Notes: generated by a model from the letters alone, not told the origin. Counted from the stretch's first letter, positions 10,003 through 51,586 are shown. The stretch: 64,000 bases of DNA from an uncultured Chlorobiaceae bacterium (GCA_903836465.1 CAILRB010000044.1:3816-67815); one strand, 5' to 3'. A program made the numbers and translations.

Positions 10003-10998
10003 TTACCCTCCTATCTCGGACATGCTTGTTCTGCCGGAGTCTTTGGAAGAGTGCTTTCCGTCCAGGGGTTTCTGGGCCACTGCTTTTCGGAACAGATCGG
10101 CGATCGATTTGTGGCTGGCATTGCTGCGGAGAAGTGGCAACAACTTCATCCCCTTTTGGTCATAAAGACAACTGATGATGGTACCGTCGGAGGTAAGACG
10201 GATCTTGTTGCACTGGCTGCAGAAATTTCGTGTAAATGCAGGAATAATCGCAATTGAGCCCTTATGATCAGGCAAGAGATAGCTAAAATACTGGGTTGAG
10301 TGGCCTTTGATAGTCTGAAGCCCGGAATAATTACTTTTCAGGAACTCCTGAATTTTATCGGCGCTGAAAAATTTTCCGGTGCGCCAGATTTGATGGTCGT
10401 CAAACGGTTGCAGCTCCAGAAATCGAACGGTGACGGCGTGCTCTCTGGTCAAATCAACAAATCGCAAAATCTCATCGCTATTGATGTCGCGCATCAGCAC
10501 AACGTTGAGCTTTATGGGAATAACGGTCGTTGCAAGAAGGTTGTCGAGGTTATGGCGCACTCGACTATAGGCATCTCTTCTTGTTATCGTATGATATCGT
10601 TCACGATCAAGGGTGTCAATGCTGAAATTGAGGGCGTCGAGACCTGCATCAACAAGAGCGGGAAGAAAACTGTCGAGCAGAAGACCGTTGGTTGTCAGGT
10701 TTACCGTTTTTATGCCTGCAATTTTTTTGGCTTCACGAACCAATTCTACAATATCCGTGCGCAGAAGAGGTTCCCCTCCGGTAAAGCGCACCTTTGTGAC
10801 TCCAAGAGTGGCAAGCACCTTGATGATGGTCATAATCTCCTGCTTGCTCAGTTGAGAGTGAGCATCAGTACTTTCTTGATGCGCCTCGCTCATGCAGTAG
10901 GAGCATCTCAGGTTGCAGCGCGAAGTGACGGCTATACGGACATAATCTATAGGTCGGTGAAACGTATCGACAAGGAAACCCTGGAAGGGACTGCTCAT
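10003..10998 (-). CDS. moaA: GTP 3',8-cyclase (molybdopterin biosynthesis)
   Basis: Radical SAM CNLRCSYC, RFTGGEPLLR, C-terminal cluster FCSQCNKIRLTSDG...CL, ends with MSEIGG. Confidence 0.95.
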   Translation of the reverse strand: MSSPFQGFLVDTFHRPIDYVRIAVTSRCNLRCSYCMSEAHQESTDAHSQLSKQEIMTIIKVLATLGVTKVRFTGGEPLLRTDIVELVREAKKIAGIKTVNLTTNGLLLDSFLPALVDAGLDALNFSIDTLDRERYHTITRRDAYSRVRHNLDNLLATTVIPIKLNVVLMRDINSDEILRFVDLTREHAVTVRFLELQPFDDHQIWRTGKFFSADKIQEFLKSNYSGLQTIKGHSTQYFSYLLPDHKGSIAIIPAFTRNFCSQCNKIRLTSDGTIISCLYDQKGMKLLPLLRSNASHKSIADLFRKAVAQKPLDGKHSSKDSGRTSMSEIGG

Positions 10999-12184: not shown

Positions 12185-12198
12185 TTAACAATCGTTAA
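12185..12198. promoter_or_regulatory. TTAAC-N4-GTTAA palindrome (candidate CRP/FNR-family site)
   Basis: TTAACAATCGTTAA, 24 nt upstream of the leader ATG; a near-identical copy lies at 24621. Confidence 0.45.
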
Positions 12199-12420: not shown

Positions 12421-12894
12421 ATGTCAACAAGAGCAACAACAACATGCACAGGCATACCATTACCAATAGTCAAACTGAATCGTATAGTTTTGCTCATTGG
12501 CATCATTGCCGCCATTGTGTTCCAGCAACCAATGGTGACCACCGCACTTTTTGTTATAATTCTTTCCGCTGTAGTTTTTGGTAAAAACGGCAGCCTTATT
12601 TTTTTCATCGGCTCACGCCTTTTTGCCAAGCAAAACATGACTGCTGAAAGTGAAGATCCGAGACTCATGCGATTCAACAACTCTATTGCGACTATTCTGC
12701 TCGGAGGAGCCCAGATCGCCTTCCTTTCAGGCAAACCTCTTGTCGGCTGGATCCTTTCCGGGATGGTTGCTGTTGCAGCCACCATAGCGCTTGCAGGCTT
12801 CTGCTTCGGTTGCTTCCTGTTCTACCAGTTCAAGCTGCAACGCTTCAAGCTTTTTGGAAACAGGGCGCAGATCAACGAACAAAAAACTGCCTAA
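12421..12894 (+). CDS. DUF4395-like membrane protein
   Basis: Four hydrophobic segments, EDPRLMRFNN and the C-terminal LAGFCFGC motif characteristic of DUF4395. Confidence 0.8.
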   Translation: MSTRATTTCTGIPLPIVKLNRIVLLIGIIAAIVFQQPMVTTALFVIILSAVVFGKNGSLIFFIGSRLFAKQNMTAESEDPRLMRFNNSIATILLGGAQIAFLSGKPLVGWILSGMVAVAATIALAGFCFGCFLFYQFKLQRFKLFGNRAQINEQKTA

Positions 12895-12937: not shown

Positions 12938-14239
12938 ATGAGTTCAGAAAACTATCGCTTTGAAACGCTTGCCCTGCACGCAGGCCAGCCTGTTGACGCA
13001 ACACTCTCGCGTGGAGTGCCGGTTTACCGCACCACCTCCTATCTTTTCAAGAGCACCGAACATGCAGCAAACCTTTTTGCACTGAAGGAGCTTGGCAATA
13101 TCTATACCCGGCTGATGAACCCCACAACCGATACTTTGGAGCAGCGGGTCACTCAGCTTGAAGGGGGCGCAGCCTCGGTTGCTGTCGCTTCGGGCACTGC
13201 CGCAATTTTTAATACGATCATTACTCTCGCAGAAGCAGGCGACAACATCGTTTCTGCCAACAACCTTTACGGCGGAACCTACACCCAGTTCGATGCCATC
13301 CTTCCGAAATTTGGCATCAACGTCACCTTTGTTGATCCCAAAGATCCTGCCAATTTTGAAAAGGCAATAACAGAAAAAACAAGAGCTCTTTTCATTGAAA
13401 CCATCGGCAATCCGGTTCTTGACTATACTGATGTCAAGGCCATTGCCGAGGTAGCACACCGTAACGGCTTGCCGCTGATTGTCGATGCCACCTTCACCAC
13501 TCCTTACCTGCTTAAAACGATTGACCTTGGAGCTGATATTGTGATCAACTCCCTCACTAAATGGCTTGGCGGCCATGGCGCAGGAATAGGCGGCATTATT
13601 ACTGATGCCGGACGTTTCAACTGGAATGGGGGACGCCACCCGCTCTTTACCGAGGCAGACAATAATTACCACGGTCTACGCTGGGCCATTGACCTTCCGG
13701 AACCTCTTGCTCCAATAGCATTCGCCCTCCGCTTCCGCACGGTGCCACTGAGGAATCTCGGTGCTTGCATTGCGCCTGACAATTCATGGATACTGCTGCA
13801 AGGCATTGAAACTCTCCCTGTCAGGATGGCCCGTCATTCAGAAAATGCACTCAAGGTTGCCGAACATCTTGCAAAACACCCCGGAGTTGCATGGGTTCGT
13901 TATCCCGGTCTGAAAAATGACCCCTCTTACCCTAAAGCTTCAAAAGATTTGAAGAACGGGTTTGGCGGCATGGTTGTCTTTGGAGTAAAGGGTGGTTACG
14001 ATGCTGCCGTGGAGATTATCGACAACATCAAACTCTTCTCACACCTGGCCAATGTTGGCGATGCCAAGAGCCTGATCCTCCATCCGGCAAGCACCTCGCA
14101 CAGCCAGTTGACCGAAGAACAACAACTGCAGAGTGGTCTTTCACCTGACCTGATACGCCTCTCCATCGGCCTTGAACATCCTGACGACCTGATCGAAGCC
14201 CTTGATGAGGCGCTTCAGAGAGTGGCAACAAAACCGTAA
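12938..14239 (+). CDS. metY: O-acetylhomoserine aminocarboxypropyltransferase / OAH-OAS sulfhydrylase
   Basis: FETLALHAG, GNIYTRLMNPT, PLP lysine SLTKWLGGHG, HLANVGDAKSLILHPASTSH. Confidence 0.92.
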   Translation: MSSENYRFETLALHAGQPVDATLSRGVPVYRTTSYLFKSTEHAANLFALKELGNIYTRLMNPTTDTLEQRVTQLEGGAASVAVASGTAAIFNTIITLAEAGDNIVSANNLYGGTYTQFDAILPKFGINVTFVDPKDPANFEKAITEKTRALFIETIGNPVLDYTDVKAIAEVAHRNGLPLIVDATFTTPYLLKTIDLGADIVINSLTKWLGGHGAGIGGIITDAGRFNWNGGRHPLFTEADNNYHGLRWAIDLPEPLAPIAFALRFRTVPLRNLGACIAPDNSWILLQGIETLPVRMARHSENALKVAEHLAKHPGVAWVRYPGLKNDPSYPKASKDLKNGFGGMVVFGVKGGYDAAVEIIDNIKLFSHLANVGDAKSLILHPASTSHSQLTEEQQLQSGLSPDLIRLSIGLEHPDDLIEALDEALQRVATKP

Positions 14240-14241
14240 CC

Positions 14242-14895
14242 ATGAAAAACGAATACAAGAACATTTCTGTCATTCTTGCTGATACCCAGTATTTAACCAA
14301 TGAAGCGATACACGCCATGTTGAGGCCCCTTTTCCATACCTTCTATACCGTATCGACAAAGGCCGATCTGCAAGAGTATCTGCAAAAGGAGACCATCTCG
14401 CTCATCATCACCGATGATCTCCTTTTCGATTTTGATTCAATCAATGATCTTGCTGATCTGAGAAAAAAGCACCAGGAGACAGGAATCGTTGTGTTGACAA
14501 ACTCCTTGACAAATGTAAAAATCAAGGAATTAAATGATATCGGCATCAGAAATATTGCACTGAAAACCGATGATCGCGAAGAGATTTTTCATGCTGTTGA
14601 CGCTGCACTGAAAGGAAAGAAATATTATTCTGGAAATGTTCTGGATATCCTTTTGAAAAAAGAGACCCCTTATGAAGATGCCAGTATTCTGACCTCTTCA
14701 GAAATCGAAATAGTTCGCATGATTTCCGGCGGTTTGTCAACAAAAGAAATTGCTACAAAACGGCATATCAGTTTTCATACCGTCATGACTCACAGAAAAA
14801 ACATTTTTCGCAAACTCGGCGTTTCAAGCAGTCCGGAACTGCTCATGTATGCCATAAAAGCGGGATTGATCGACAATATTGAATACCATATCTGA
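14242..14895 (+). CDS. NarL/LuxR-family response regulator
   Basis: REC-like N-terminus (ILAD, IITDD, VLTN, ALK) and LuxR HTH LTSSEIEIVRMISGGLSTKEIA...TVMTHRKNIFRKLGV. Confidence 0.9.
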   Translation: MKNEYKNISVILADTQYLTNEAIHAMLRPLFHTFYTVSTKADLQEYLQKETISLIITDDLLFDFDSINDLADLRKKHQETGIVVLTNSLTNVKIKELNDIGIRNIALKTDDREEIFHAVDAALKGKKYYSGNVLDILLKKETPYEDASILTSSEIEIVRMISGGLSTKEIATKRHISFHTVMTHRKNIFRKLGVSSSPELLMYAIKAGLIDNIEYHI

Positions 14896-14897
14896 CC

Positions 14898-14945
14898 ATA
14901 CCCTGTTTATGGTATATCAGATGCCTGTTTAACGGGATTTATAAT
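14898..14945 (+). promoter_or_regulatory. Candidate cysK promoter with two 18-bp quasi-palindromes and a TATAAT -10
   Basis: ATACC-CTGTTTAT-GGTAT (14898-14915), ATGCC-TGTTTAAC-GGGAT (14921-14938), TATAAT at 14940-14945. Confidence 0.45.
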
Positions 14946-15001
14946 TATGTATTTATTAACGATGTTGAAGGTCATTACAACCACCTAAACAATCAACAGC
15001 T

Positions 15002-15955
15002 ATGGGACGTATTGCAAAAAAATTGACCGATCTTATCGGAAACACACCTCTTCTTGAGCTTGGAAATTTCAATCGTGAACATGATGCCCTGGGCACGATT
15101 ATTGCGAAACTTGAATACTTTAACCCTGGGGGAAGTGTCAAAGACCGTATTGGTTTTTCAATGATCGACAAGGCTGAAAAAGAGGGCTTGCTGAATAAAG
15201 AGAGCATCATCATTGAGCCGACAAGCGGCAATACCGGTATTGCCCTGGCGTTTATCGCTGCAGCGAAAGGATACCGCCTGATACTCACCATGCCTGAAAC
15301 CATGAGTCTCGAACGCAGGAATCTGCTCAAGGCGCTTGGCGCAGAGCTGGTGCTGACACCTGGCCCTGAAGGAATGGTCGGAGCCATCAGAACTGCCGAT
15401 GAACTGCACTCGGAATATCCAAATTCTTTTGTTCCGCAACAGTTCAAAAACCTTGCAAATCCTGAAATTCATCGCAAAACAACGGCAGAAGAGATCTGGA
15501 ATGATACTGACGGAAAGGTTGATTTCTTTGTCAGCGGGGTAGGCACGGGCGGTACGATAACCGGTGTTGGTGAGGTACTCAAAGCGCGGAACCCTGAGGT
15601 AAAAATTGTTGCTGTTGAACCATTCGATTCACAGGTTATTGCCGGCGGTAAACCTGGACCACACAAAATACAGGGTATCGGCGCCGGTTTTGTGCCGGAT
15701 ATTCTTAACACCTCCATTATCGATGAAATTATCCCGGTTAAAAATGAAGATGCCCTTCGTACCGGCCGAAAACTGGCCAAAACCGAAGGACTTATTGTGG
15801 GTATTTCTTCCGGCGCAGCCGTTTATGCCGCTTTACAGCTTGCACTGCGTGAGGAAAACAAGGGCAAACGAATTGTCGTCATCCTGCCGGATACCGGAGA
15901 GCGGTACCTCTCCACGCTGCTCTACCAGTTTGACAGTGAACCAGTCAATATTTGA
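15002..15955 (+). CDS. cysK: Cysteine synthase A
   Basis: [41 protein letters not shown]. Confidence 0.97.
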
Positions 15956-16006: not shown

Positions 16007-16921
16007 ATGCAGACCAACAACGGCGATATCATTGAAGAGGCGATCAAGCTTTTATCGAGCCCTGCTGATGATAGTGAAGGTGACTATTCCGGGCAGCACG
16101 AATATCTGCTGCCCTCTATTGAAAAGCTCAAAGAGATTGTCGAACTCCTCAGGTCAATACTCTTTCCTGGGTATTTCGGCGGACCCGTATTGCGTCGCCA
16201 GTCGCTTCAACATTTTCTCGGTGTCAGGGTTGAAAAACTTTACGGATTGCTTGCTGAACAGATTCTCAGCGTTCAGCATTTCGACATAGAAAACAACAGT
16301 GCTGCCAATGCTTCAGAAAAAGCCGCCGAAGTTACCCGCCAGTTCATCGGAATTCTTTCGGAGATCAGGAAGAAATTATGGACTGACGTCAAGGCCATCT
16401 ACGACGGAGACCCGGCGGCAAAAAACTATGGTGAGATCATCTTCTGCTACCCTTCCATCAGGGCAATGGTCAACTACCGCTCAGCTCACACCCTGCTGTC
16501 GCTTGGCGTGCCCCTGATTCCGAGAATTATTACTGAAATGGCCCATTCGGAAACCGGGATTGACATTCATCCCGGCGCTCACATCGGAGACTATTTTTCA
16601 ATTGATCATGGCACCGGTGTCGTCATCGGTGAAACCTGCATTATCGGCAGCCACGTCCGACTCTACCAGGGAGTCACCCTTGGCGCAAAGAAGTTTGCTC
16701 TCGATGAACACGGCAACCCGGTCAAGAATCTGCCGCGCCACCCAATTATTGAGGATAACGTCGTCATTTACTCAAACGCCAATATTCTTGGCAGAATAAC
16801 CATCGGCAAAAACTCTGTTATCGGTGGCAACGTGTGGCAGACAAAAAGCGTACCGCCCAATTCAAGAGTTTTGCAGCAGATCGCCGTTGAAAGCAGTTTT
16901 ACCGACGGCCTCGGCATTTGA
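16007..16921 (+). CDS. cysE: Serine O-acetyltransferase (EpsC/SrpH-like long form)
   Basis: GDPAA, GIDIHPGAHIG...IDHGTGVVIGET hexapeptide repeats, LYQGVTLG, RHPII. Confidence 0.93.
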   Translation: MQTNNGDIIEEAIKLLSSPADDSEGDYSGQHEYLLPSIEKLKEIVELLRSILFPGYFGGPVLRRQSLQHFLGVRVEKLYGLLAEQILSVQHFDIENNSAANASEKAAEVTRQFIGILSEIRKKLWTDVKAIYDGDPAAKNYGEIIFCYPSIRAMVNYRSAHTLLSLGVPLIPRIITEMAHSETGIDIHPGAHIGDYFSIDHGTGVVIGETCIIGSHVRLYQGVTLGAKKFALDEHGNPVKNLPRHPIIEDNVVIYSNANILGRITIGKNSVIGGNVWQTKSVPPNSRVLQQIAVESSFTDGLGI

Positions 16922-16964
16922 AAGATCACGTTAATTGTTCACCTTTAAACCATTGAATTAACCC

Positions 16965-18419
16965 ATGAACGCACAACCCGAATCAAACAGTTATCTCCAG
17001 CGCAGCGTGACAACCCATGTGGCGAGAAATCTGGCCAATACGACCAAGACTCCTCCCCAGATGAACTCCATAACCCCGAGGTGGCTCCTGAAGCTGCTCC
17101 CGTGGGTTCACGTCTCTTCTGGTACCTATCGCGTTAACCGGACAAAAATTGAGCTCCAGAAACCCGAACGTATCGGCATCGATTTTCATGACGGCGTTGC
17201 CTCGTTCAGGCCTGATGCGCTGAAAAGCATTCCGCTGTTTGCATCATTTGACAACGAAGTTATTGGTCAGATTGCAAAAAAGTTTGTGCTTGAAGAGGCC
17301 GAACTTGGCAACACGCTTATTCTTGAAGGCGAAGAGCGCCATAAAATCTTCATTATAGCACACGGGCAGGTTGAAATTTTAAGCAAGGGACTTCATGGAG
17401 AGGATCTCCGTATCGCCCTGCTTTCGGAAGGAGAATATTTCGGTGAAGAGGAGCTTGTTTCAGAGAAACCCTCCTCGGTCACTATCCGTACCATCACTCC
17501 AGGCTCGTTTTTTTCCTTATCCAGCGTTGATATCGAAAAGCTGTTCAGGGAATCGCCATCATTGAAAGAGTCATTTCAGAATACGGTTGAAGAGTACCTC
17601 AAAATACGCTCTACCGTCAACAAACACGGTGAAAAACATATTGACCTTATTGCCGGATTCGAGGAAAATGTCGAAATCCCGGAAACCTATGTTGATTACT
17701 CAAACAAACCGCGCGAATACTCGCTGCAGGCCATACAGACTGTCGTGCGCGTCCATACACGAGTCTCCGACCTCTACAACGAACCCTTCAACCAGATCGA
17801 GCAGCAGATGCGCCTGACGATCGAGGGCATCAAGGAGCGTCAGGAGTGGGAGTTCATCAACAACAGAGAGTTCGGCCTGCTCCACTCTGCCGACCCCGGA
17901 CAGCGCATCAGCACCCGCTACGGAACTCCGACCCCGGATGATCTTGACGATTTGCTTACCAAAGTATGGAAAAAACCGGCATTCTTTATTGCTCATCCCA
18001 AAGCAATTGCGGCCTTCGAACGCGAATGCACCTGGCGCGGCGTTCCTCCGCCGACGATCAACCTTTTTGGAACTCCAGTCCTGACCTGGCGCGGTGTTCC
18101 TCTTGTTCCATGCGACAAGCTTGAAATCAACAAAAACAGCAAATCCGGCCATGGCACAACCAATATCATCCTTGTTCGTGTCGGTGAAAATGAACAGGGT
18201 GTGGTTGGACTGCACCAGGCAGGGATCCCCGGAGAGATCAGTCCAAGCCTTTCTGCAAGACTGATGGGACTCGACAAACTCGGCGTCGCTTCCTACCTGC
18301 TGACCCTCTACTCATCACTGGCCGTACTGACTGATGATGCTCTCGCGATACTTGAAAATGTCGAAGTGGGCTACTATCACGATTACGAACATCGCACCTC
18401 CGGAACCAAAGTAAAATAA
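16965..18419 (+). CDS. Family 2B encapsulin shell protein (SrpI-like HK97 fold with inserted cNMP-binding domain)
   Basis: SrpI hallmarks ARNLANTTKTPPQM..ITPRWLLKLLPWV, DY..KPREY.L, RVHTRVSDLYN.P, ERQEWEFINN..FGLL, DDLDDLL.KVWKKP, WRGVPL.PCDKL, VGENEQGVVGL. cNMP domain at about aa 85-200 (IPLF...HGQVEI...GEYFGE). Confidence 0.93.
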   Translation: MNAQPESNSYLQRSVTTHVARNLANTTKTPPQMNSITPRWLLKLLPWVHVSSGTYRVNRTKIELQKPERIGIDFHDGVASFRPDALKSIPLFASFDNEVIGQIAKKFVLEEAELGNTLILEGEERHKIFIIAHGQVEILSKGLHGEDLRIALLSEGEYFGEEELVSEKPSSVTIRTITPGSFFSLSSVDIEKLFRESPSLKESFQNTVEEYLKIRSTVNKHGEKHIDLIAGFEENVEIPETYVDYSNKPREYSLQAIQTVVRVHTRVSDLYNEPFNQIEQQMRLTIEGIKERQEWEFINNREFGLLHSADPGQRISTRYGTPTPDDLDDLLTKVWKKPAFFIAHPKAIAAFERECTWRGVPPPTINLFGTPVLTWRGVPLVPCDKLEINKNSKSGHGTTNIILVRVGENEQGVVGLHQAGIPGEISPSLSARLMGLDKLGVASYLLTLYSSLAVLTDDALAILENVEVGYYHDYEHRTSGTKVK

Positions 18420-18439
18420 AAGAACTCTTTGACAACCCG

Positions 18440-18470
18440 TCATGGCAGGCTTTCAACGTGTCTGCCATGA
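18440..18470 (+). other. Intergenic stem-loop between the shell and cargo genes
   Basis: TCATGGCAGGC-tttcaacgt-GTCTGCCATGA, 11-bp stem (one G-U pair), no U-tract. Confidence 0.6.
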
Positions 18471-18488
18471 ATTCACAATTGTTATACT

Positions 18489-20375
18489 ATGCCAGGAGCA
18501 TATCAACATCCGAACATCACAGGAGCCGAAAGCGAATCGCTGAATCCGACCTTTATTGCGCAACTTGCAAGCCGTCTCTTCAATGAACTCCCTGAGGCAG
18601 AAAACGTCCCGAGAAGTGAAGGTGATATCTCGGAAGCGCCATCTGCTGTAGCCAACACTTTCCATGATAAAACAACATTCGTCGGCACACAGGATCCCGT
18701 GGATTTCTCCTCCAGTGCCGCTTCAGCGATCCCGGTACACGATTTCTATTTTCTGCCGCACGCTCAAGAAAAAGAGCCGGAACCACTTGAACACCATGCC
18801 AATAAACTGACCGAACAGCAGAACTATTCAGAGAGTGAAAAGGGATCGAATGGTCTTGACCAGCTTTTGCGGCGTTCACTGCCTGTACAGACTGATGAGC
18901 ATGAATGTTACGCAGAAAAGCTCTACAGGGAGTTCACCGGGCAACAGGGCAGTCCCGTCATGGAGGTCGTTTTTCAGGCTCTTCGCGGTAGCGCCGAATC
19001 GCCTGCTCAGCCGGGCTTTGATCGATTACCCGTTACTCAACCTGAGTCTCCAGGAAAAGCGCCAGCTCCGGTCTCGCCAAACAGCGCCTTCAGCATCCCG
19101 GATTCTTACGCAGAGCCTTACTATTTCCTGCGTGAACCGCAACAGCCTATCCATCAGACAGAAGGATTTGATGTAACCACCATTCGCAAGGATTTTCCGG
19201 TCTTGCGTCAGTTGGTTCACGGCAAACCGCTTGCCTGGTTCGACAACGCCGCCACAACGCAAAAACCCCTGAGCGTCATCAACGCTGTAGCGCACTTCTA
19301 CGCCACGGACAATTCGAACATTCATCGCGGCGCACATACCCTTGCCGCTCGCGCCACCGATGCTTACGAAGGCGCACGCGAAAAGATCAGGCAGTTTATC
19401 GGCGCTGGCTCAACCTCGGAAATCATCTATGTCAGGGGCACTACCGAGGGTATCAACCTTGTGGCACAAACCTGGGGAAGAAAGTTTCTCCAGCCGGGCG
19501 ATGAGATTGTGCTCTCCATTCTTGAGCATCATGCCAATATCGTTCCGTGGCAGATGGTAGCCCAGGAGAAAGGAGCGCGCATCAAGGTGATCCCGGTCAA
19601 CGATCGGGGCGAAATCATCCTTGAAGAGTACACCAAACTGCTTGGGCCACGCACGCGCCTGGTCTCACTGACACAGGCTTCGAACGGTCTTGGAACCATT
19701 CTGCCTGTCAGGGAGATGATTCAACTGGCCAAACGCTATGACGCCAGAGTGCTTGTTGATGGAGCCCAGTCCGTTGCCCACATACCGGTCAATGTGCAGG
19801 ATCTCGATGCCGACTTTTTTGTCTTTTCAGGCCATAAAATCTTTGCTCCGACAGGTATCGGTGTGGTCTATGGCAAAAAAGAGCTGCTTGAGGTAATGCC
19901 GCCATGGCAGGGCGGCGGAAACATGATCAAGGATGTACGTTTCGAAGAGACCATTTACAACGAAGCCCCGGCAAAATTTGAGGCTGGAACGCCCTCAATC
20001 GGAGACGCCATCGGCCTTGGAGCTGCTCTTGATTACGTGCGCAAAATAGGTCTTGAAAACATTGCGCAATACGAGCACGAACTGACCGAGTACGGCACTG
20101 AAAAGCTGATTCGCATTCCCGGTCTGCGTCTGATTGGCACCGCAAGAAACAAGGTGGGCGTGCTCTCTTTTGTGCTGAACAATCTGCCCAACGAAGAGGT
20201 TGGCAAGCTGCTCGACCGCGAAGGCATTGCCGTCCGGGCCGGGCACCACTGCACCCAGCCATCGTTGCGCCGCTTCGGTGTTGAGGGAACCGTACGACCG
20301 TCGCTGGCCTTCTACAACACGAGAGATGAAATTGACCGGCTGGCTGATGTGATCAACCATATTCAGCGGAGATAA
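18489..20375 (+). CDS. SufS-class cysteine desulfurase with ~225-aa disordered N-terminal encapsulation domain
   Basis: FDNAATTQKP, EHHANIVPWQ, PLP motif FSGHKIFAPTG, catalytic RAGHHC. The Pro/Ser/Glu-rich extension contains IAQLASRLF, FYFL and PYYFL. Confidence 0.93.
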   Translation: MPGAYQHPNITGAESESLNPTFIAQLASRLFNELPEAENVPRSEGDISEAPSAVANTFHDKTTFVGTQDPVDFSSSAASAIPVHDFYFLPHAQEKEPEPLEHHANKLTEQQNYSESEKGSNGLDQLLRRSLPVQTDEHECYAEKLYREFTGQQGSPVMEVVFQALRGSAESPAQPGFDRLPVTQPESPGKAPAPVSPNSAFSIPDSYAEPYYFLREPQQPIHQTEGFDVTTIRKDFPVLRQLVHGKPLAWFDNAATTQKPLSVINAVAHFYATDNSNIHRGAHTLAARATDAYEGAREKIRQFIGAGSTSEIIYVRGTTEGINLVAQTWGRKFLQPGDEIVLSILEHHANIVPWQMVAQEKGARIKVIPVNDRGEIILEEYTKLLGPRTRLVSLTQASNGLGTILPVREMIQLAKRYDARVLVDGAQSVAHIPVNVQDLDADFFVFSGHKIFAPTGIGVVYGKKELLEVMPPWQGGGNMIKDVRFEETIYNEAPAKFEAGTPSIGDAIGLGAALDYVRKIGLENIAQYEHELTEYGTEKLIRIPGLRLIGTARNKVGVLSFVLNNLPNEEVGKLLDREGIAVRAGHHCTQPSLRRFGVEGTVRPSLAFYNTRDEIDRLADVINHIQRR

Positions 20376-20488: not shown

Positions 20489-21628
20489 ATGCAGTTTGAA
20501 ACCCTTGCCATCCATGACGGACAAGCACCTGATCCCCAAACCGGCTCTGTAACCGTTCCTGTTTACCAGACCTCCACCTTCGGGCGCGACAGCCTCGACG
20601 AGCGCAATGAGTTTTTTTATTCTCGAATCGGCAACCCGACACGGAAAGCGCTTGAATCAGCACTTGCGCTCCTTGAAAATGGCAAGTACGGTCTCGCCTT
20701 TGCCTCTGGAGTGGCGGCAACCATGGCGGCGCTGCAGGTGCTGAAACCCGGCGACCACATTGTTGCGGGCAACGACATTTACGGCGGAAGCTACCGCATT
20801 TTCGAGCAGCTCCTGAAACCATGGGGCGTTACCACCAGCTATACCGAAAGCGAAGCAACCGAGAGTTATGAAGCCAGCATAACACCGGCGACGAAGCTGA
20901 TCTGGATTGAAACCCCAAGCAATCCGCTGCTCCAGCTCTCCGACATCAGGGCGCTTGGCAAGCTTGCCAAAGAGCGTGGGATCTTGCTTGCAGTGGACAA
21001 CACCTTTGCCAGTCCCTATTTCCAGCGGCCACTTGAGCTTGGCGCCGACATTGTCGTGCACAGCACCACCAAATACCTCGGCGGCCACAGCGATGTCATT
21101 GGCGGCGCCGTGGTAACTTCAAACACGGCGATACACACCACCATCAAAAACTATCAGGGCGCAGCAGGGGCAGTACCCGGCCCCTGGGACTGCTGGCTTA
21201 TTCTGCGCGGTTTGAAAACGCTGAAAATCCGCATGAAGGAGCACGAAGCAAGCGCAATGCACCTTGCCGAAATGCTTGAACGCCATCCTGCTGTGGAACG
21301 GGTCTTTTATCCTGGCCTTGCCTCGCACCCGCAGCATAAACTGGCAAAAGAGCAGATGAGCGGGTTTGGCGGCATGGTGACCTTTGCCTTGAGCGGTGGC
21401 CTTCCGGCCGTCGAGCGGTTGATCGCGAAAATCAAATTCTTTGTACTGGCCGACAGCCTTGGCGGGGTGGAGTCGCTCATCTCCTCGCCAGCAAAAATGA
21501 CGCTCTGGGCGCTTTCACAGGCTGAGCGGGAGCGGAGAAAATGTACCGACAACCTGGTACGACTCTCTGTCGGGCTTGAAAATGCGACTGATCTTGAGGC
21601 TGACCTCCTGAACGCCCTTGAGCCATAA
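20489..21628 (+). CDS. Cystathionine gamma-synthase/lyase family PLP enzyme (trans-sulfuration)
   Basis: [48 protein letters not shown]. Confidence 0.92.
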
Positions 21629-21684: not shown

Positions 21685-21888
21685 ATGATTACTATTGACC
21701 TGAACGGACAACAACAACCACTTCCCCCCGATTCTACCGTCAGCGATCTTCTCGCGGCCATCGGTTCAGACGGGAAAAGCGTGGCCGTCGTTGTTAATGA
21801 ACAAATCATTCGCCCCGAAAACCGCCCATCGCACCTGCTTCAGGCGGGTGACAGGGTTGAACTCCTGATTTTTGCCGGCGGTGGCTAA
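21685..21888 (+). CDS. thiS: Thiamine biosynthesis sulfur carrier
   Basis: 67 aa, LNG, VAVVVNEQII, GDRVE, C-terminal GG; sits upstream of thiG. Confidence 0.93.
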   Translation: MITIDLNGQQQPLPPDSTVSDLLAAIGSDGKSVAVVVNEQIIRPENRPSHLLQAGDRVELLIFAGGG

Positions 21889-24620: not shown

Positions 24621-24634
24621 TTAACAACCGTTAA
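24621..24634. promoter_or_regulatory. TTAAC-N4-GTTAA palindrome upstream of sucA
   Basis: TTAACAACCGTTAA; the flanking 16-mer GGTTAACAA[T/C]CGTTAA is shared with 12183-12198. Confidence 0.45.
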
Positions 24635-24742: not shown

Positions 24743-27574
24743 ATGATGCATCAGTATAGCAGCAGTTCCTATCTCTCAGGGGGAAATGCCCCTTATATCG
24801 AAGATCTTTATGAAGCCTATCTCGACAATCCAGGCTCAGTTTCCGAGAAGTGGCGAGCTTACTTTGATGCCATGCAAAATATGCCGGGAACAAACGGCTC
24901 CGATGCCCGAGATATCGCGCACTCACCCGTACAGGCATCGTTTGCTGAAAGAGCACGTCTTGGCCCAATCTGCCGTGTTGTAGCAAATCCTGATGCCGAA
25001 CTCGGCCGCAAACGGGTCTCGGTACAGAAACTGATCGCCGCTTACCGCAACATTGGTTCACGCTGGGCAGATCTTGATCCCCTGAAACGTCAGGAGCGAC
25101 CTGCACTTCCCGATCTTGAGCCCTCCTTTTACGGGTTCACGGATACCGACATGGATATTGTCTTTAACACCAGCAATACCTATTTCGGCAAGGAAAGTAT
25201 GCCGCTTCGCGAAGTGCTGCAGAATCTGCGCGAGACCTACTGTGGTACACTTGGCATTGAGTTCATGTACATCACTGACCAGACGGAAAAACGGTGGTGG
25301 CAGGCAAAGTTCGAGACGATACGTTCGAAACCTGATTTCACTCCGGAGAAGAAAAAACATATTCTTGAACGTTTAACTGCTGCTGAAGGATTTGAGCGCT
25401 ATCTCCATACCCGTTTTATCGGCCAGAAACGCTTCTCTCTTGAAGGGGGGGAAAGCTTTATTGCCTCCATGGATGAACTGATCCAGCGGGCTGGCAAAGC
25501 CGGGGTTCAGGAGATCGTCATCGGTATGGCCCACAGGGGACGATTGAATGTGCTTGTCAATATCATGGGAAAAAATCCGCTTGACCTTTTTGCGGAATTC
25601 GAGGGGAAGCATGCTGCGGATCTTCCCTCCGGCGACGTAAAATATCATCAGGGCTTTACCAGCGACATTGCCACTCCCGGCGGCCCGATCAATCTCTCTC
25701 TTGCCTTCAATCCATCGCATCTTGAAATTGTCAATCCAGTAGTAGAGGGCGCTGTCAAAGCCCGCCAGGTACGCAGAGGCGACAGGGACGGCTCACAGGT
25801 GCTGCCTATTCTGGTTCACGGTGATGCTGCCTTTGCCGGACAGGGCGTTATCATGGAGACGTTGAATCTTGCGCTGACAAGGGGATACGGCACTGGCGGC
25901 ACGGTTCATATAGTTATCAATAACCAGATTGGCTTCACCACTTCTGATCCTCGCGACAGCCGTTCAACAACCTATTGTACCGATGTGGTCAAGATGATTG
26001 AGGCACCGGTTCTGCACGTCAATGGCGACGATCCTGAATCGGTCGTACTGGCGACTCAGATGGCGCTTGATTACCGGCAGGCGTTCAAACGCGATGTGGT
26101 TATTGACATTATCTGTTTCCGCAAGCTTGGTCATAACGAACAGGATACACCAGCCATGACCCAACCGCTGATGTACAAAAAGATAGACAAGCACCCCGGC
26201 ACCCGGAAACTCTTTGCTGAAAGACTTGAATCGCAGGGAGTCATCAACGAGGAGTATGCCACGAAGCTCAGTCAGCAATTCCGCAAGGATCTTGATGAAG
26301 GAAAGTACACCGCAAATCCGGTACTGGTCAATAAGACCATCTTTACAGCGGAACCGGCAACCGGTCATGATGAAGTCTCCGAAACCGGCGTTCCACTTGC
26401 GGAACTCAAACGACTCTCGGAGATGATCACCAAAATCCCTGAAGGGTTCAAGCTTCACCCGCTTGTTGAAAAGGTAGTCAATGACCGTGCCCGCATGGGT
26501 CGAGGAGAACAGCTTCTCGACTGGGGTATGGGTGAACATCTGGCATTTGCATCACTTGTTGCAGGTGGTTACCCGATTCGCATTACCGGCCAGGACAGCG
26601 GAAGAGCTACATTTTCGCACCGTCATTCCGTCCTGCACGATCAAAAACGTGAAAAATGGGATTCGGGCATCTACATCCCGCTTCAGAATGTTGCCAGCAA
26701 CCAGGCGGCCTTTACGGTTATCGACTCCGTTCTTTCCGAAGAGGCAGTTCTCGGGTTTGAATACGGCTACTCTATCTCAGCTCCCGATACTCTGGTGATC
26801 TGGGAAGCCCAGTTCGGCGACTTTGCCAACGGAGCACAGGTTTTGATTGATCAGTTCATCACCTCCGGAGAGGTGAAGTGGGGGCTTTCATCCGGCCTGA
26901 CCCTCATGCTGCCTCACGGCTATGAAGGACAGGGACCGGAACACTCATCAGCCCGACCGGAACGCTTCCTGCAGCTCTGCGCCGAGAACAACATTCAGGT
27001 TTGTCAACCGACGAACCCTGCCCAGATTTTTCACCTGCTTCGGCGGCAGATGACCACCATGATCCGCAAACCGCTGGTCATTCTCACCCCCAAATCATTG
27101 CTCCGCAACAAGGAGGCGGTCTCTGCCCTGGCTGATCTCTCCACAGGAAATTTTCAGAACATTATCAGCGATCCGGCAGCAAATCCCGCAAAAGTAAAAA
27201 GACTTCTTGCCTGTTCCGGCAAGGTTTATTATGATCTTGTTAACCGCAGGCGGGAGAACACGGTTGAAGATGTTGCCATAATCCGTATCGAACAGCTTTA
27301 TCCGTTTCCTCTTGAGGAGTTTGGCGCTGAGCTTGCGCTTTATCCTCAACTGAAGGATATTGTCTGGTGTCAGGATGAACCAAAAAATCAGGGGTATTGG
27401 CGTTTTCTCCAGCACTATATCATGAAAGCCATGACGCCGGGCCAACAGTTCGGCTATGCAGGAAGACTCGCATCAGCGTCTACAGCATGCGGCTACGCCG
27501 CAACACATGCCCTCCAGCAAAAAGCGTTGCTTGATCAGGCATTCGGTGAGTTCAGTGTTTTTTTCAACAAATAA
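24743..27574 (+). CDS. sucA: 2-oxoglutarate dehydrogenase E1
   Basis: GQKRFSLEGGES, GMAHRGRLN, FNPSHLE, TPP motif HGDAAFAGQG...NNQIGFTT, GHNEQD, WEAQFGDFANGAQ, PHGYEGQGPEHSS. Confidence 0.97.
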   Translation: MMHQYSSSSYLSGGNAPYIEDLYEAYLDNPGSVSEKWRAYFDAMQNMPGTNGSDARDIAHSPVQASFAERARLGPICRVVANPDAELGRKRVSVQKLIAAYRNIGSRWADLDPLKRQERPALPDLEPSFYGFTDTDMDIVFNTSNTYFGKESMPLREVLQNLRETYCGTLGIEFMYITDQTEKRWWQAKFETIRSKPDFTPEKKKHILERLTAAEGFERYLHTRFIGQKRFSLEGGESFIASMDELIQRAGKAGVQEIVIGMAHRGRLNVLVNIMGKNPLDLFAEFEGKHAADLPSGDVKYHQGFTSDIATPGGPINLSLAFNPSHLEIVNPVVEGAVKARQVRRGDRDGSQVLPILVHGDAAFAGQGVIMETLNLALTRGYGTGGTVHIVINNQIGFTTSDPRDSRSTTYCTDVVKMIEAPVLHVNGDDPESVVLATQMALDYRQAFKRDVVIDIICFRKLGHNEQDTPAMTQPLMYKKIDKHPGTRKLFAERLESQGVINEEYATKLSQQFRKDLDEGKYTANPVLVNKTIFTAEPATGHDEVSETGVPLAELKRLSEMITKIPEGFKLHPLVEKVVNDRARMGRGEQLLDWGMGEHLAFASLVAGGYPIRITGQDSGRATFSHRHSVLHDQKREKWDSGIYIPLQNVASNQAAFTVIDSVLSEEAVLGFEYGYSISAPDTLVIWEAQFGDFANGAQVLIDQFITSGEVKWGLSSGLTLMLPHGYEGQGPEHSSARPERFLQLCAENNIQVCQPTNPAQIFHLLRRQMTTMIRKPLVILTPKSLLRNKEAVSALADLSTGNFQNIISDPAANPAKVKRLLACSGKVYYDLVNRRRENTVEDVAIIRIEQLYPFPLEEFGAELALYPQLKDIVWCQDEPKNQGYWRFLQHYIMKAMTPGQQFGYAGRLASASTACGYAATHALQQKALLDQAFGEFSVFFNK

Positions 27575-27583
27575 TATCCACGA

Positions 27584-28834
27584 ATGGCAATCATTGATGT
27601 CACCATATCCCAGTTGTCGGAATCCGTTGCCGAAGCAACACTGCTGAACTGGAAAAAAGCTCCAGGAGATGCTGTTGCTGTAGACGAAATTCTCTTTGAA
27701 ATCGAAACCGACAAAGTTGTTTTTGATGTACCGTCTCCCTCCGCAGGTATTCTCTTTGAAATTCTTGTCGGTGACGGTGGCACGGTAGTTCCCAATCAGG
27801 TTCTGGCTCGCATCGACAGCGAAGGCAAAGCGGCAGCAACAACTGCTGCAGCATCTGTTGCTGATCAGCAGAAGATCGAAACAGCTCCGCCAACGGCTGT
27901 TCCAAAATCTGAAGGCGGAATTGCCATGCCTGCCGCAGCAAAACTGATGGCTGAAACCGGCCTGAACCTGTCACAAATAGAGGGCACCGGCAGGCATGGA
28001 AGAGTTACAAAAGGCGATGTCATGCAAGCCATTGCGGCTGGAGCAGAACCGGCGGCCCAACCAGCACCTGCAGCTTCTGCAGTACAAAAGCTGAAACCAG
28101 TAGAAGCAGTTACTGACCCTTCTCTGCTGACCGACCGACCGGAACAGCGCGTACCCATGACCCGTCTCAGGGCACGCATCGCTGAAAGGCTTCTTCACTC
28201 TCAGGCAACCAACGCCATTCTGACGACCTTCAATGAGGTCGACATGCATGCGGTCATTGATCTGCGCAACCGCTACAAGGTTGCCTTTGAAAAAGAGCAC
28301 GGCGTCAAACTCGGCTTCATGTCTTTCTTTGTGAAGGCTACCGTACATGCCCTGCGCAAATATCCCGTCCTGAACGCTTCAGTTGACGGCAAGGATATCA
28401 TTTATCACGGTTATTTTGATATCGGTATCGCCGTCAGCTCACCGAGAGGACTGGTTGTCCCTATTCTTCGCAATGTCGACCAGATGAGCATTGCCGACAT
28501 TGAAAGCAAAATTGCCGACTATTCCACAAAGGCAAAACTGGGGACGCTCTCCCTTGAAGAGCTGACTGGCGGCACCTTCTCGATTTCCAACGGAGGCGTT
28601 TTCGGTTCAATGCTTTCAACGCCGATCATCAATCCGCCGCAGTCTGCAATTCTTGGCATCCACGCCACAAAAGAGAGGCCTGTTGTGGAAAACGGGCAGA
28701 TTGTCATACGACCGATGAACTATCTTGCCATGTCCTATGACCATCGAATTATCGACGGTAAAGAAGCGGTACTTGGTCTTGTTGCAATAAAGGATGCACT
28801 GGAAGATCCGGCGCGTCTCTTACTTGATCTTTAA
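27584..28834 (+). CDS. sucB: Dihydrolipoamide succinyltransferase E2
   Basis: Lipoyl motif EIETDKV, E3-binding [13 protein letters not shown], catalytic SYDHRIIDG. Confidence 0.97.
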
Positions 28835-28848
28835 AAAGAAACTCTACC

Positions 28849-30285
28849 ATGAACAAACAATTCGACGTTCTTGTTATCGGTGCAGGTCCCGGCGGATATA
28901 TTGCCGCCATCCGTGCCGCACAACTTGGTTTTTCTGTGGCCTGCTGTGAATTCAACTCCTATGACAATCCTGCAGATGAACCCCGGCTTGGCGGCACCTG
29001 TCTCAATGCCGGATGTATTCCACTGAAAGCACTTGTTGCCTCTTCTGAAGCCTTCGAAAAAGCGGTGCATCACCTTCCTGATCATGGCATCACTACGACA
29101 GGCATAAGCATTGATGTTACCAGAATGCAGAAGCGCAAGGAGGCTATTGTCACAAAAATGACTGCCGGAGTGCAGTTCCTTTTCCGCAAAAACAAGATCA
29201 CCCTTCTCAAGGGAAGGGGCTCTTTTGCCGGAAAAACTGATACCGGCTATAGAATTATCATCAGCGGCAAAGAGGGTGATGAAGAGGTGCTGGCACAGAA
29301 GGTCATTATCGCTACCGGTTCCAAAGCTCGCCATATCCCGAATGTCAAGGTCGATAATGTCACCATCTGTGATAATGAAGGAGCACTGAAATTCACTGAG
29401 GCGCCAAAAAAACTGGGAGTTATCGGCGCTGGTGTCATTGGCCTTGAAGTAGGTTCGGTCTGGCGCAGACTGGGGGCTGAGATTACCGTTCTTGAAGTTA
29501 TGCCTTCATTTCTCGGTGCTGCCGATGAGAGTGTTTCAAGAGAAGCTTCCAAGCTCTTTTTAAAACAGGGGCTGAACATCAAGCTCGGTGTCAGAATCGG
29601 CCAGGCGAAACTCACGAAAGATGGCGTCAGCATTGCCTATACCGACGATCAGGGTTCAGAACATACCCTTGAATGCGACAAACTGATTGTCTCCGTTGGC
29701 CGTACTCCAAACACGGAAAAACTTAACCTTGAGGCAGTTGGCCTCCAGACCGATGAACGGGGCTTTATTCCTGTTAATGATCATTGCGCTACTGCCGCTC
29801 CAGGTGTTTATGCTATCGGAGATGTGGTACGCGGCCCCATGCTGGCACACAAAGCTGAAGACGAAGGTGTCATGGTGGCTGAACTGCTGGCGGGTCAGAA
29901 GCCGCATCTCGACTACAACAGCATGCCATGGGTTATCTACACTACTCCCGAAATCGCCTGGGTTGGAAAAACCGAACAACAGCTTCGCTCTGAAGGACGC
30001 GATTACAAAACAGGACAATTTCCCTTTGCCGCCAACGGACGGGCACTGGGTCTTGGGGATGCCGAAGGATTTATCAAAATGCTTGCCGATGCGAAAACCG
30101 ACGAAATTCTCGGCGTACACATTATTGGCGCAAGCGCCTCCGACCTGATCGCTGAAGCCGCGCTTGCCATGGAGTTCCATGCATCATCCGAGGATGTAGC
30201 ACGCACCTGCCATCCTCATCCAAGCCTTTCGGAGGTGATGCGCGAAGCCGCCCTCGCCATTGAAAAGCGGGCGCTGAATATGTAA
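28849..30285 (+). CDS. lpdA: Dihydrolipoamide dehydrogenase E3
   Basis: GAGPGGY, GGTCLNAGCIP redox disulfide, GAGVIGLE, HPHPSLSE. Confidence 0.97.
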   Translation: MNKQFDVLVIGAGPGGYIAAIRAAQLGFSVACCEFNSYDNPADEPRLGGTCLNAGCIPLKALVASSEAFEKAVHHLPDHGITTTGISIDVTRMQKRKEAIVTKMTAGVQFLFRKNKITLLKGRGSFAGKTDTGYRIIISGKEGDEEVLAQKVIIATGSKARHIPNVKVDNVTICDNEGALKFTEAPKKLGVIGAGVIGLEVGSVWRRLGAEITVLEVMPSFLGAADESVSREASKLFLKQGLNIKLGVRIGQAKLTKDGVSIAYTDDQGSEHTLECDKLIVSVGRTPNTEKLNLEAVGLQTDERGFIPVNDHCATAAPGVYAIGDVVRGPMLAHKAEDEGVMVAELLAGQKPHLDYNSMPWVIYTTPEIAWVGKTEQQLRSEGRDYKTGQFPFAANGRALGLGDAEGFIKMLADAKTDEILGVHIIGASASDLIAEAALAMEFHASSEDVARTCHPHPSLSEVMREAALAIEKRALNM

Positions 30286-30288
30286 TGC

Positions 30289-31335
30289 TCAGCAGATTCT
30301 CGGCAATTGTTCACCGAGCGGAAGATCAATAATCCGCTGGCTGCCATAAACTGTACGCATGACCACCATACCGGGATGATCGTCAACCACCGATCCGATG
30401 ATGACGGCATCCCGGCCAGGGTCAAACCTCCGCATCACTTCAAGAACCTTCTCTGCATCACCTGCCGCTACAGCCACAACAAGTTTGCCTTCGTTGGCCA
30501 CATGCAGGGGATCAATGCCAAGCAGTTCACAAGCCCCGCGAACGTCAGATTTTACAGGAATTGTGGATTCATGGATCTCAATCCCGATGGAAGAGGAGCT
30601 TGCCAGTTCGTTCAGCGTTGCGGCTACCCCTCCCCTGGTCGGGTCGCGCATGGCGTGAATGGCGAAGGGCACCTCATCAAGAATGGTGCTGATCATGCCG
30701 TTAAGCGCTGCACAGTCGCTTGTTATCCGCGACTGGAAGGAGAGCCCTTCGCGTGAGGTCATGATGGCCATTCCATGATCACCAACTGTCCCTGAGAGAA
30801 TAATGCTGTCACCCGCTTTCATGTTTCGGCACGAAAGGTTGACTCCCTCTCTGATGATGCCGATCCCCGCTGTGTTGATGAAAAGCTTGTCGCACTGCCC
30901 TTTACCGACAACCTTGGTGTCGCCGGTGACAATCATCACTCCTGCTTTTCGGGCAGCTTCGGCCATGCTGATTACAACGGCTTCAAGCTCCGCCAGCGAA
31001 AGCCCCTCTTCAAGCACGAAACCCGCGCTGAGGTAGAGCGGTGTTGCGCCACCAACCGCCAGATCGTTGACCGTACCGTTGACGGCAAGTTCTCCAATGT
31101 TGCTGCCGGGGAAAAAAATCGGGCTCACCACGTAGGTGTCGGTAGTAAAGGCAATTCGCCTTGAGGGAAGATCAAGCTTTGCCTGATCATCGAGCAGATC
31201 CAGAAAGGAGTTATGGAGGTGGGGCATAAACACCCGATGCATGAGCGCCTGCGATAACCGCCCCCCAGCGCCATGCGCCATCTGGACCGTTTCGTGCTGC
31301 ATAATAGGAGTTGGACAAATCGGCGCAATCGTCAT
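30289..31335 (-). CDS. hypE: Hydrogenase maturation carbamoyl dehydratase
   Basis: [36 protein letters not shown]-terminal PRIC. Confidence 0.97.
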
Positions 31336-32707: not shown

Positions 32708-32798
32708 GAGTATCAGGAGCTAAGGTTATGAAACACTTGTTCAAAGTAAGAAAAAAACAGTGCCCTGCCGAAAGGTGGCCGTTGGTGATTTTGTATAT

Positions 32799-50688: not shown

Positions 50689-50749
50689 GAGATGGTTGCG
50701 CTTCACCAAACATTCGTTACTTCAATTAACCTGTAAAACAATCCTCATC

Positions 50750-51571: not shown

Positions 51572-51586
51572 TTCTTCTGTAAGAAT

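Follow-up and report, generated by a model that had tools for sequence, protein, structure and literature searches.

The desulfurase encapsulins characterized so far all belong to Family 2A. On plasmid pANL of Synechococcus elongatus PCC 7942, the shell protein SrpI (Protein Data Bank (PDB) entry 6X8M) and the cysteine desulfurase CyD are encoded in the operon cysK-epsC-srpI-cyd-rhodanese; the operon of Acinetobacter baumannii (shell 8T6R) reads rhodanese-cysE-shell-desulfurase and lacks cysK. Sulfur starvation induces the desulfurase encapsulins of Family 2A (PMC8346489, PMC10836720); that of A. baumannii has been shown to store elemental sulfur, and the same is proposed for SrpI (PMC10836720, PMC8346489). 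Two motifs, ‘LARLANEFFS’ and ‘AASPYYFLDG’, are defined in the disordered N-terminal domain of the Family 2A cargo (Nichols et al., PMC8049743). Family 2B shells carry an additional inserted domain with the fold of a cyclic nucleotide-binding domain (CBD), and structures are available for Streptomyces griseus Sg Enc/EshA (9BHU) and S. lydicus Sl-Enc1/Enc2 (9BJE, 9BIX) (PDB identities from PMC12407261, PMC11550324). The cargo of these Streptomyces shells is a terpene cyclase or is unknown (xylulose kinase operon). Desulfurase cargo is present in about 9% of Family 2B systems (PMC11550324); 199 such operons from nine phyla have been catalogued (Andreas & Giessen 2021, PMC8346489), and two-component cysteine desulfurase (CD) operons are mentioned in later work (Adv Sci 2025, PMC12407261). 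Here we describe a cysK-cysE-shell-desulfurase cassette in a 64,000-nucleotide (nt) stretch of DNA, hereafter the window, from an uncultured Chlorobiaceae bacterium (GCA_903836465.1, CAILRB010000044.1:3816-67815). The cassette is almost certainly a Family 2B desulfurase encapsulin operon. Its genes and the parts of their products are as follows, in window coordinates.

15002..15955, + strand: cysK, O-acetylserine sulfhydrylase (cysteine synthase A); TIGR01139 464 bits, cutoff 351
16007..16921, + strand: cysE/epsC-type serine O-acetyltransferase with an extended N-terminal domain; EpsC NF041874 152 bits, cutoff 150, and Hexapep
16965..18419, + strand: Family 2B encapsulin shell, 484 amino acids (aa); Pfam, NCBIfam, phmmer
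17148..17672, + strand: insertion relative to Family 2A shells, residues ~62-236, comprising a putative metal-binding subdomain, the CBD-fold beta-barrel and a linker; tblastn to SrpI
17439..17489, + strand: phosphate-binding-cassette equivalent, F159-G160-E161-E-E-L-V-S166-E-K168-P169-S170-S171-V172-T173-I174-R175; at least 80-90% conserved in 206 clade sequences
17607..18371, + strand: SrpI-like HK97-type domain, C-terminal part, residues 215-469; PF19307
18489..20375, + strand: SufS-type cysteine desulfurase, the predicted encapsulin cargo, 628 aa; Pfam, NCBIfam, PDB match
18489..19163, + strand: predicted cargo-loading domain, residues 1-225, rich in P, E, S and A; composition, alignment, cargo model coverage
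18552..18581, + strand: cargo-loading motif 1, FIAQLASRLF(NELP), equivalent to ‘LARLANEFFS’ of Family 2A cargo; motif search, alignment
18744-18758, + strand: extra DFYFL, residues 86-90; motif search
19116..19130, + strand: cargo-loading motif 2, PYYFL within AEPYYFLREP (residues 208-217), equivalent to ‘AASPYYFLDG’; motif search, alignment
19164..20372, + strand: catalytic type II desulfurase domain (complete class-V aminotransferase/SufS), residues 226-628; SGHK at residues 447-450 (Lys450, codon 19836-19838) and HHC at residues 586-588 (Cys588, codon 20250-20252)

Profile searches place the shell protein in Family 2B across its length. It matches both Pfam models that an earlier note on this DNA had named as a check, SrpI-like (PF19307, residues 215-469, E 3e-117) and cNMP_binding (PF00027, residues 113-196, E 8e-14), and scores 590 bits against a cutoff of 400 with the NCBIfam equivalog model encap_f2b (NF041163, residues 14-469), the same family model that describes the Streptomyces shells. 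Full-length homology to the Family 2B shells solved by cryo-electron microscopy (cryo-EM) is found with phmmer (9BJE, E 1e-121; 9BHU, 6e-112; 9BIX, 1e-109), includes the inserted domain, and corresponds to 43-47% identity. E-values of this size cannot be put down to chance. For the Family 2A shells of S. elongatus and A. baumannii, the best match is confined to approximately residues 230-478, and the best stretch in the encap_f2a model comprises residues 223-474 only. Family 2A shells have about 300 aa and no CBD insertion; the protein here has 484 aa and an insertion of 175 residues, which is bordered by SrpI homology in tblastn searches (residues 20-61 and 237-476 only). Identity across the HK97 part is 76-82% within a desulfurase-type Family 2B clade that crosses phyla; it is 58-59% against the desulfurase shells of Family 2A and 53-57% against the Family 2B shells of Actinobacteria and Alphaproteobacteria (Kitasatospora, Methylobacterium, Streptomyces). 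The N-terminal arm is highly conserved and resembles that of Family 2A, unlike that of the Streptomyces shells. Homology to the cryo-EM shells predicts that the protein would assemble into a 60-subunit T=1 icosahedral shell. An AlphaFold2 model built from a 51-sequence alignment (all at least 69% identical) reached moderate confidence only at residues ~75-210 and was too poor for a fold search; we therefore relied on sequence homology to the cryo-EM structures.

The second open reading frame (ORF) begins 69 nt after the shell gene, and both lie exactly where the earlier note had placed them. Its product matches Aminotran_5 (residues 250-618, E 3e-146), the SufS model TIGR01979 (558 bits) and the PDB entry 8KG1 (E 1e-171 over residues 217-625). 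From knowledge of SufS (E. coli K226, C364), we take Lys450 to be the lysine that binds pyridoxal phosphate and Cys588 to be the catalytic, persulfide-forming cysteine. The NCBIfam cargo model f2_encap_cargo1 (NF041166) covers residues 13-624 with 800.7 bits, barely above its cutoff of 800. Disorder-promoting residues make up 59% of the 225 N-terminal residues, compared with 48% of the catalytic domain. In the earlier note, the locus was read as a CBD-bearing Family 2B shell with a SufS-type desulfurase after it, the enzyme having a long disordered N-terminus. Pfam, NCBIfam and phmmer bear out this description, and the composition of the N-terminus is disorder-like.

Cargo proteins from Chlorobiaceae, Leptospiraceae, Planctomycetes, Geobacter, S. 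elongatus, Azospirillum and A. baumannii, together with the short Kitasatospora cargo, were aligned to compare their N-terminal domains. Motif 1, which lies in the block FIAQLASRLFNELP (residues 22-35 of the desulfurase), is the sole well-aligned block of this domain; it is recognizable in most of the aligned cargos, degraded in that of S. elongatus and absent from the short Kitasatospora protein. The rest of the domain varies widely in length, with proteins of 547-749 aa in the close clade. The N-terminal domain is about 120 residues longer in Chlorobium ferrooxidans and in Chlorobiaceae loci of a second layout described below as type B (741-749 aa, compared with 628 aa in the window; L034 9523-11772, L011, L039), and the extra block of these longer cargos separates the two conserved motifs. 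The cargo-loading motifs are confined to this one ORF of the window. At the level of sequence, these features support the same loading mechanism as in Family 2A, and the desulfurase is predicted to be encapsulated.

Among described systems, the pANL operon is one of the closest to the cassette. Gene order is the same, cysK(srpG)-cysE(srpH)-shell-desulfurase, and the products are similar throughout, with identities of 56% for CysK, 52% for CysE (residues 33-304), 61-62% for the shell on either side of the insertion, and 64% for the desulfurase domain. The cargo is likewise built of two domains and contains both N-terminal motifs, and the surrounding genes serve cysteine and methionine biosynthesis, a context shared with srpGHI-cyd, the operon of sulfur starvation. 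There are three differences: the shell here contains the CBD-fold insertion of ~175 residues (residues ~62-236), the position of the rhodanese gene is taken by a cystathionine gamma-synthase-family gene, and the locus is on a Chlorobiaceae chromosome rather than a plasmid. Given the homology of four proteins in the same order, we regard the locus as in essence an operon of SrpI type that lacks an adjacent rhodanese and in which the shell either acquired the insertion or kept it. The A. baumannii system is also close (59-61% identity in the shell HK97 domain, 62% in the desulfurase domain). Its cargo N-terminus contains TIARLANEFFSAVP and AFYFL motifs that align with the motifs here, and both operons include a serine O-acetyltransferase as accessory gene, directly upstream of the shell gene in the window. 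The A. baumannii shell lacks a CBD, and the elemental sulfur storage shown for it is presumed here. The Streptomyces Family 2B systems share the shell architecture and differ in cargo, which is a desulfurase in the present locus.

The locus belongs to the catalogued Family 2B desulfurase class. The earlier note had correctly stated that the characterized desulfurase encapsulins are all Family 2A, but it overstated the case in presenting a Family 2B shell with a desulfurase as a new combination: besides the 199 operons already catalogued, NCBI labels the Chlorobium homologues ‘family 2B encapsulin nanocompartment shell protein’, and NCBI models name both proteins. The finding is thus the correct recognition of an already catalogued and automatically annotated class. 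The term ‘Chlorobi’ is not present in the body text or in seven supplementary files of Andreas & Giessen 2021, nor are Chlorobium and ferrooxidans in these supplements, and our literature search found no paper linking encapsulins with Chlorobium.

To place the locus among its relatives, we compared 58 loci from Chlorobiales and 22 from other phyla (Planctomycetes, Leptospiraceae/Spirochaetota, and a Geobacter metagenome-assembled genome (MAG)). The desulfurase gene is 3' of the shell gene in all 47 assessable Chlorobiales loci and in 15 of 16 loci of the other phyla. In Chlorobiales, cysK is found at most 1.3 kb upstream of the shell gene in 44 of 45 assessable loci, and cysE stands immediately 5' of it in 28 of 45. 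Each of the 58 Chlorobiales loci contains only one shell gene, compared with two in 16 of the 22 loci from other phyla; this tandem double shell 5' of the desulfurase is seen mainly in Planctomycetes (L060-L080). The window itself contains no second shell or cargo copy in its 64 kb. The nearest relatives of the locus outside Chlorobi are those of the Leptospiraceae, Planctomycetes and Geobacter MAG (69-74% identical), with the layout cysK-(cysE)-shell(-shell)-desulfurase.

Around the cassette, genes run on one strand with short gaps in the order DUF4395, metY-like, regulator, cysK, cysE/epsC, shell, desulfurase, cystathionine gamma-synthase family, thiS-thiG-thiH-thiF, an arrangement that we term type A. 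The flanking features are:

12421..12894, + strand: DUF4395 membrane protein, which opens the conserved same-strand block of type A Chlorobiaceae loci; Pfam DUF4395 E 1e-23, synteny
12938..14239, + strand: metY-like O-acetylhomoserine/O-acetylserine sulfhydrylase; Cys_Met_Meta_PP E 6e-130, TIGR01326 590 bits, cutoff 495
14242..14895, + strand: LuxR/NarL-FixJ-type response regulator, receiver and GerE helix-turn-helix (HTH); GerE E 4e-15, Response_reg 27.6 bits, under the 30.2 cutoff
14899..14914, no strand: palindrome TACC-N8-GGTA, a putative operator between the regulator gene and cysK; degenerate second copy at ~14921-14938
20489..21628, + strand: cystathionine gamma-synthase/lyase family gene, 3' of the desulfurase gene in type A loci; Cys_Met_Meta_PP E 5e-146
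21685-21888: thiS, then thiG, thiH and thiF, which follow the cystathionine gamma-synthase-family gene in type A loci

A second layout, type B, lacks cysE. One group of type B loci, with L019 (3877-12939) and L009, L011, L013, L017 and L051, comprises MgtE-like and Nramp genes on the minus strand, cysK-shell-desulfurase, and a convergent alanine dehydrogenase gene. Alanine is the product of the desulfurase. The Chlorobiaceae shell sequences form one clade, with type B loci nested among type A loci like that of the window. Several MAGs contain loci of both types, which may reflect either real paralogy or mixed bins; because bins can be mixtures, we treat duplication of the locus within a genome as unproven. 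DNA identity to the nearest MAG (L003) ranges from 85 to 98.6% along the region and shows no clear recombination boundary at the cassette. Elsewhere in the window, at 50657-52651 (+), a methylthioadenosine phosphorylase gene adjoins that for methylthioribose-1-phosphate isomerase (IF-2B family), a pair for methionine and sulfur salvage that again hints at sulfur economy.

In Sg Enc, the inserted CBD-fold domains lie on the shell exterior above large two-fold pores; the protein does not bind cyclic AMP (cAMP), which changes neither its structure nor the activity of its cargo (PMC11550324). The canonical pocket Arg is missing from nearly all Family 2B shells (Andreas & Giessen; PMC11550324). Sg Enc, Sl-Enc1/Enc2 and the shell described here all lack it. 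We take the canonical cassette register to be FGE-x7-P-R-[ST]-A-[ST]-V, which puts the Arg that contacts the cyclic phosphate at Ser170. Among 206 non-identical sequences from the close clade, at least 90% have this serine, and Gly160-Glu161 are also kept. Mean per-position conservation in the same set is 0.74 for the CBD, 0.82 for the cassette segment and 0.89 for the HK97 part. The pocket differs from that of the solved Family 2B shells as well, since HMMER alignments have a one-residue gap exactly at the pocket Trp of the actinobacterial shells (W176 of Sg Enc), with Ser170/Ser171 in its place. For Sg Enc, a metal-binding subdomain is described N-terminal of the CBD; residues 60-90 align with the equivalent segment of Sg Enc and Sl-Enc1, and AlphaFold2 predicts two short strands and a helix there with low confidence.

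Because the Arg is replaced by a clade-conserved Ser170, canonical binding of, or gating by, cyclic nucleotides is unlikely. The negative cAMP result for Sg Enc is not automatically transferable, as the actinobacterial and alphaproteobacterial CBDs of Family 2B share only about 21-27% identity with the present one. Given its conservation, the pocket may bind a different ligand, or the domain may have a role in structure or docking. In the possibly ligand-gated store proposed in the earlier note, a cyclic nucleotide is an unlikely ligand, and gating by another ligand is possible. One speculative and rather improbable version is that the CBD-fold domains sense a metabolite reporting sulfur status (e.g. 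O-acetylserine/N-acetylserine, adenosine phosphosulfate (APS) or its 3'-phospho form (PAPS), a thiol, or a non-cyclic nucleotide) and in response admit to the lumen or shut it off. If true, this would be the first function assigned to the Family 2B insertion domain, and would give photoferrotroph-type Chlorobium a ligand-regulated sulfur reserve for life in sulfur-poor ferruginous water.

The response regulator encoded upstream of cysK is a candidate regulator of the cassette, possibly acting through the palindromes between the two genes. TACC-N8-GGTA occurs twice in the window against an expectation of 0.21. Across approximately 40 Chlorobiaceae loci of types A and B2, its arms are invariant and its spacer varies without compensatory changes, so that it resembles a protein-binding site and not an RNA hairpin. 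The geometry TAC-N10-GTA is presumably that of NarL-type 7-2-7 sites. The regulator gene accompanies the shell operon in two arrangements, either 5' of cysK or directly after the desulfurase gene (W9 MAGs), and its staying with the operon even when relocated makes a regulator-operator pair a reasonable proposal. Similarity to E. coli NarL is weak (26% over 126 residues, E 1e-5) and supports an assignment at family level only. Rfam at gathering thresholds and ARAGORN returned nothing in the window, so that neither the cassette nor the thi genes are preceded by a riboswitch that reaches this threshold. A scan of 11-25 kb for sigma-70 promoters and intrinsic terminators gave counts at or below shuffle expectation, leaving the operon boundaries undefined.

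A perfect palindrome, TTAAC-N4-GTTAA, is located in two intergenic promoter regions, at 12185-12198, between modE and DUF4395/metY, and at 24621-24634, upstream of sucA. Type B loci (e.g. L011, L019, L036) have it as well, in their case upstream of cysK, and it may be the operator of a global regulator. Its count in the window (3, with 1.0 expected) is not significant by itself.

A freshwater metatranscriptome contains contigs of about 90% identity that cover metY-regulator-cysK (13886-15903), part of the shell gene, and two junctions, cysE/shell (16544-17149) and cysK/cysE. With their low depth and possible carry-over of DNA, these contigs are weak evidence that a related population transcribes, and co-transcribes, the genes.

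The host is a member of the Chlorobiaceae, which agrees with the green sulfur bacterium assumed in the earlier note. Its shell is 98% identical to those of several uncultured lake Chlorobiaceae MAGs and 91% identical to those of C. ferrooxidans DSM 13031 and Chlorobium sp. KB01, and this DNA is present almost in full in lake-water metagenomes. In a pattern-based scan with 167 relatives, the only cultured Chlorobiaceae among the best 80 were C. ferrooxidans DSM 13031 and KB01, both photoferrotrophs; classical sulfide-oxidizing type strains were not detected among them, which is no proof of their absence. Sulfate suffices as sole sulfur source for C. ferrooxidans and C. phaeoferrooxidans, and assimilatory sulfate reduction is present (PMC5498476, PMC8125076). 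The contrast that the earlier note had drawn with extracellular sulfur globules is weak in this light: the cultured carriers are sulfate-assimilating photoferrotrophs and the genomic context is cysteine and methionine biosynthesis. Since these photoferrotrophs are the only cultured carriers found, the cassette points to sulfur economy rather than to dissimilatory globules.

Some other features of the window can be recorded. Genes for a 2-oxoglutarate dehydrogenase complex, sucA (E1, 943 aa), sucB (E2) and lpd (E3), are present at 24743-30285 (+) in this Chlorobiaceae genome; green sulfur bacteria use a reverse tricarboxylic acid cycle with a ferredoxin-dependent enzyme. The sucA gene adjoins the thi genes in related MAGs too (L002, L008, L029). 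A cbb3-type cytochrome oxidase cluster is located at 52780-59506 (+), with ccoN, ccoO, ccoP, a ccoG-like ferredoxin and a ccoI-like P-type ATPase; the host group consists of strictly anaerobic phototrophs. Hydrogenase maturation genes hypE, hypD, hypF and hypB lie at 30289-35977 (-). Two ORFs of about 400 aa, at 39100-40311 (+) and 61090-62253 (+), have no Pfam match at E <= 1e-5.

On balance, we favor the reading that this single-shell operon, cysK-cysE-enc2B-cyd, encodes a sulfur-sequestering compartment and is the CBD-bearing counterpart of srpG-srpH-srpI-cyd. CysE and CysK would make cysteine from serine, acetyl-CoA and sulfide. The SufS-type desulfurase would be packed into a T=1 shell of HK97 fold through its ~225-residue N-terminal domain, with the FIAQLASRLFNELP and PYYFL motifs. 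Within the shell, it would convert cysteine to alanine and sulfane sulfur, the latter piling up in the lumen as a private, non-toxic reserve as in Family 2A. One CBD-fold domain per subunit would lie on the outside of the shell, where it may bind a ligand other than a cyclic nucleotide or serve a structural or docking role, and might control access to the lumen. The adjacent NarL/FixJ-type regulator probably controls expression through the TACC-N8-GGTA palindromes upstream of cysK. We infer that the shell assembles, encloses its cargo and stores sulfur, and likewise the regulation and the binding of any ligand; gene content, domain architecture, motifs, synteny and co-occurrence are what the analysis shows. 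Such a reserve makes ecological sense for hosts that assimilate scarce sulfate in ferruginous water.

Several points weigh against this model. No rhodanese is found among the annotated neighbors of the cassette, although this enzyme is the proposed remobilizing partner in approximately half of Family 2A operons. We found no experimental study of a Family 2B desulfurase system in the literature up to 2026, and for assembly, loading and storage we extrapolate from shells with an HK97 domain identity of 53-59%. The solved Family 2B shell has large open two-fold pores (PMC11550324); if these are kept here, a closed storage lumen is less obvious. Mean confidence of the AlphaFold2 shell model, expressed as the predicted local distance difference test (pLDDT), is 42.7, with 65-81 in the CBD region alone. 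The link between regulator and palindrome is positional only, and the receiver domain falls under its Pfam cutoff. The metatranscriptome contigs, too, come from a related population and may include DNA.

Two other readings retain an encapsulated desulfurase and give its sulfur a different purpose. It might serve to detoxify cysteine and sulfide in Fe(II)-rich, sulfur-variable water by locking sulfur away from Fe(II) and thiol-driven redox damage, with re-use secondary. CysK and the desulfurase do provide a route from sulfide through cysteine to elemental sulfur, the carriers inhabit ferruginous or freshwater anoxic layers, and alanine dehydrogenase and an Nramp transporter flank the cassette in type B loci. 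This reading overlaps largely with storage and is inseparable from it by sequence, but the homologous Family 2A systems respond to sulfur starvation, not excess, and we consider it unlikely. A little less credible still is a sulfur-trafficking hub, in which the desulfurase would pass persulfide sulfur to external acceptors for thiamine (ThiS/ThiF), molybdopterin or Fe-S clusters. Channelling to a dedicated acceptor was proposed by Andreas & Giessen (PMC8346489), and the window has thiS-thiG-thiH-thiF two genes downstream of the cassette and moaA upstream at 10003-10998. However, the thi genes are absent in type B Chlorobiaceae loci and in other phyla while cysK and the desulfurase are conserved, the cassette encodes no rhodanese or other acceptor, and an enzyme inside a shell would be out of reach for a protein acceptor.

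The remaining readings concern the shell protein itself. A store gated by cAMP or cyclic GMP and separate from the dissimilatory globules of the lineage, a cyclic nucleotide version of what the earlier note envisaged, would account for the cNMP_binding match, the retained Gly160-Glu161 and the location of the CBDs over the two-fold pores of the solved shell. It is nonetheless very unlikely, as the phosphate-binding Arg is replaced by Ser170 clade-wide, Sg Enc neither binds cAMP nor changes conformation with it, and the cultured carriers assimilate sulfate and are not known for sulfide-based growth. Database names of homologues (‘Crp/Fnr family transcriptional regulator’, ‘CRP-like cAMP-binding protein’) would make the gene a transcription factor or another non-assembling cNMP-binding protein. 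We rejected this as highly implausible: Pfam matches include no HTH family, the C-terminal 270 residues form an SrpI-like HK97 domain, and the cryo-EM shells to which the protein is homologous along its full length were themselves deposited under such misleading names. Descent from a remnant prophage capsid gene has next to no probability and was likewise rejected. Its only attraction is a weak match to a PHROG major-head family (E 5e-8), which any HK97 fold may be expected to give; encapsulin models score better by more than 100 orders of magnitude, annotation of the 64 kb window shows no further phage genes, and synteny with metabolic genes is stable across the 58 Chlorobiales loci.

Within an already recognized class, the putative sulfur-sequestering operon described here adds several features. 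These are the homology of four genes and their shared order with srpGHI-cyd, the near-universal link to cysK in the clade, the single shell of Chlorobiales where most loci of other phyla have two, a pocket with Ser in place of Arg, unlike the Trp pocket seen in solved Family 2B shells, candidates for a regulator and its operator, and the restriction of cultured carriers to photoferrotrophs. With its clean single shell, compact operon and candidate dedicated regulator and operator, the Chlorobium system is a suitable test case, and sulfur supply can be controlled in the cultured hosts C. ferrooxidans and KB01. If sulfur is stored, the compartment would represent an assimilatory intracellular reserve in a group known for dissimilatory sulfur chemistry, and would bear on models of photoferrotrophy in sulfur-poor, Precambrian-like waters.

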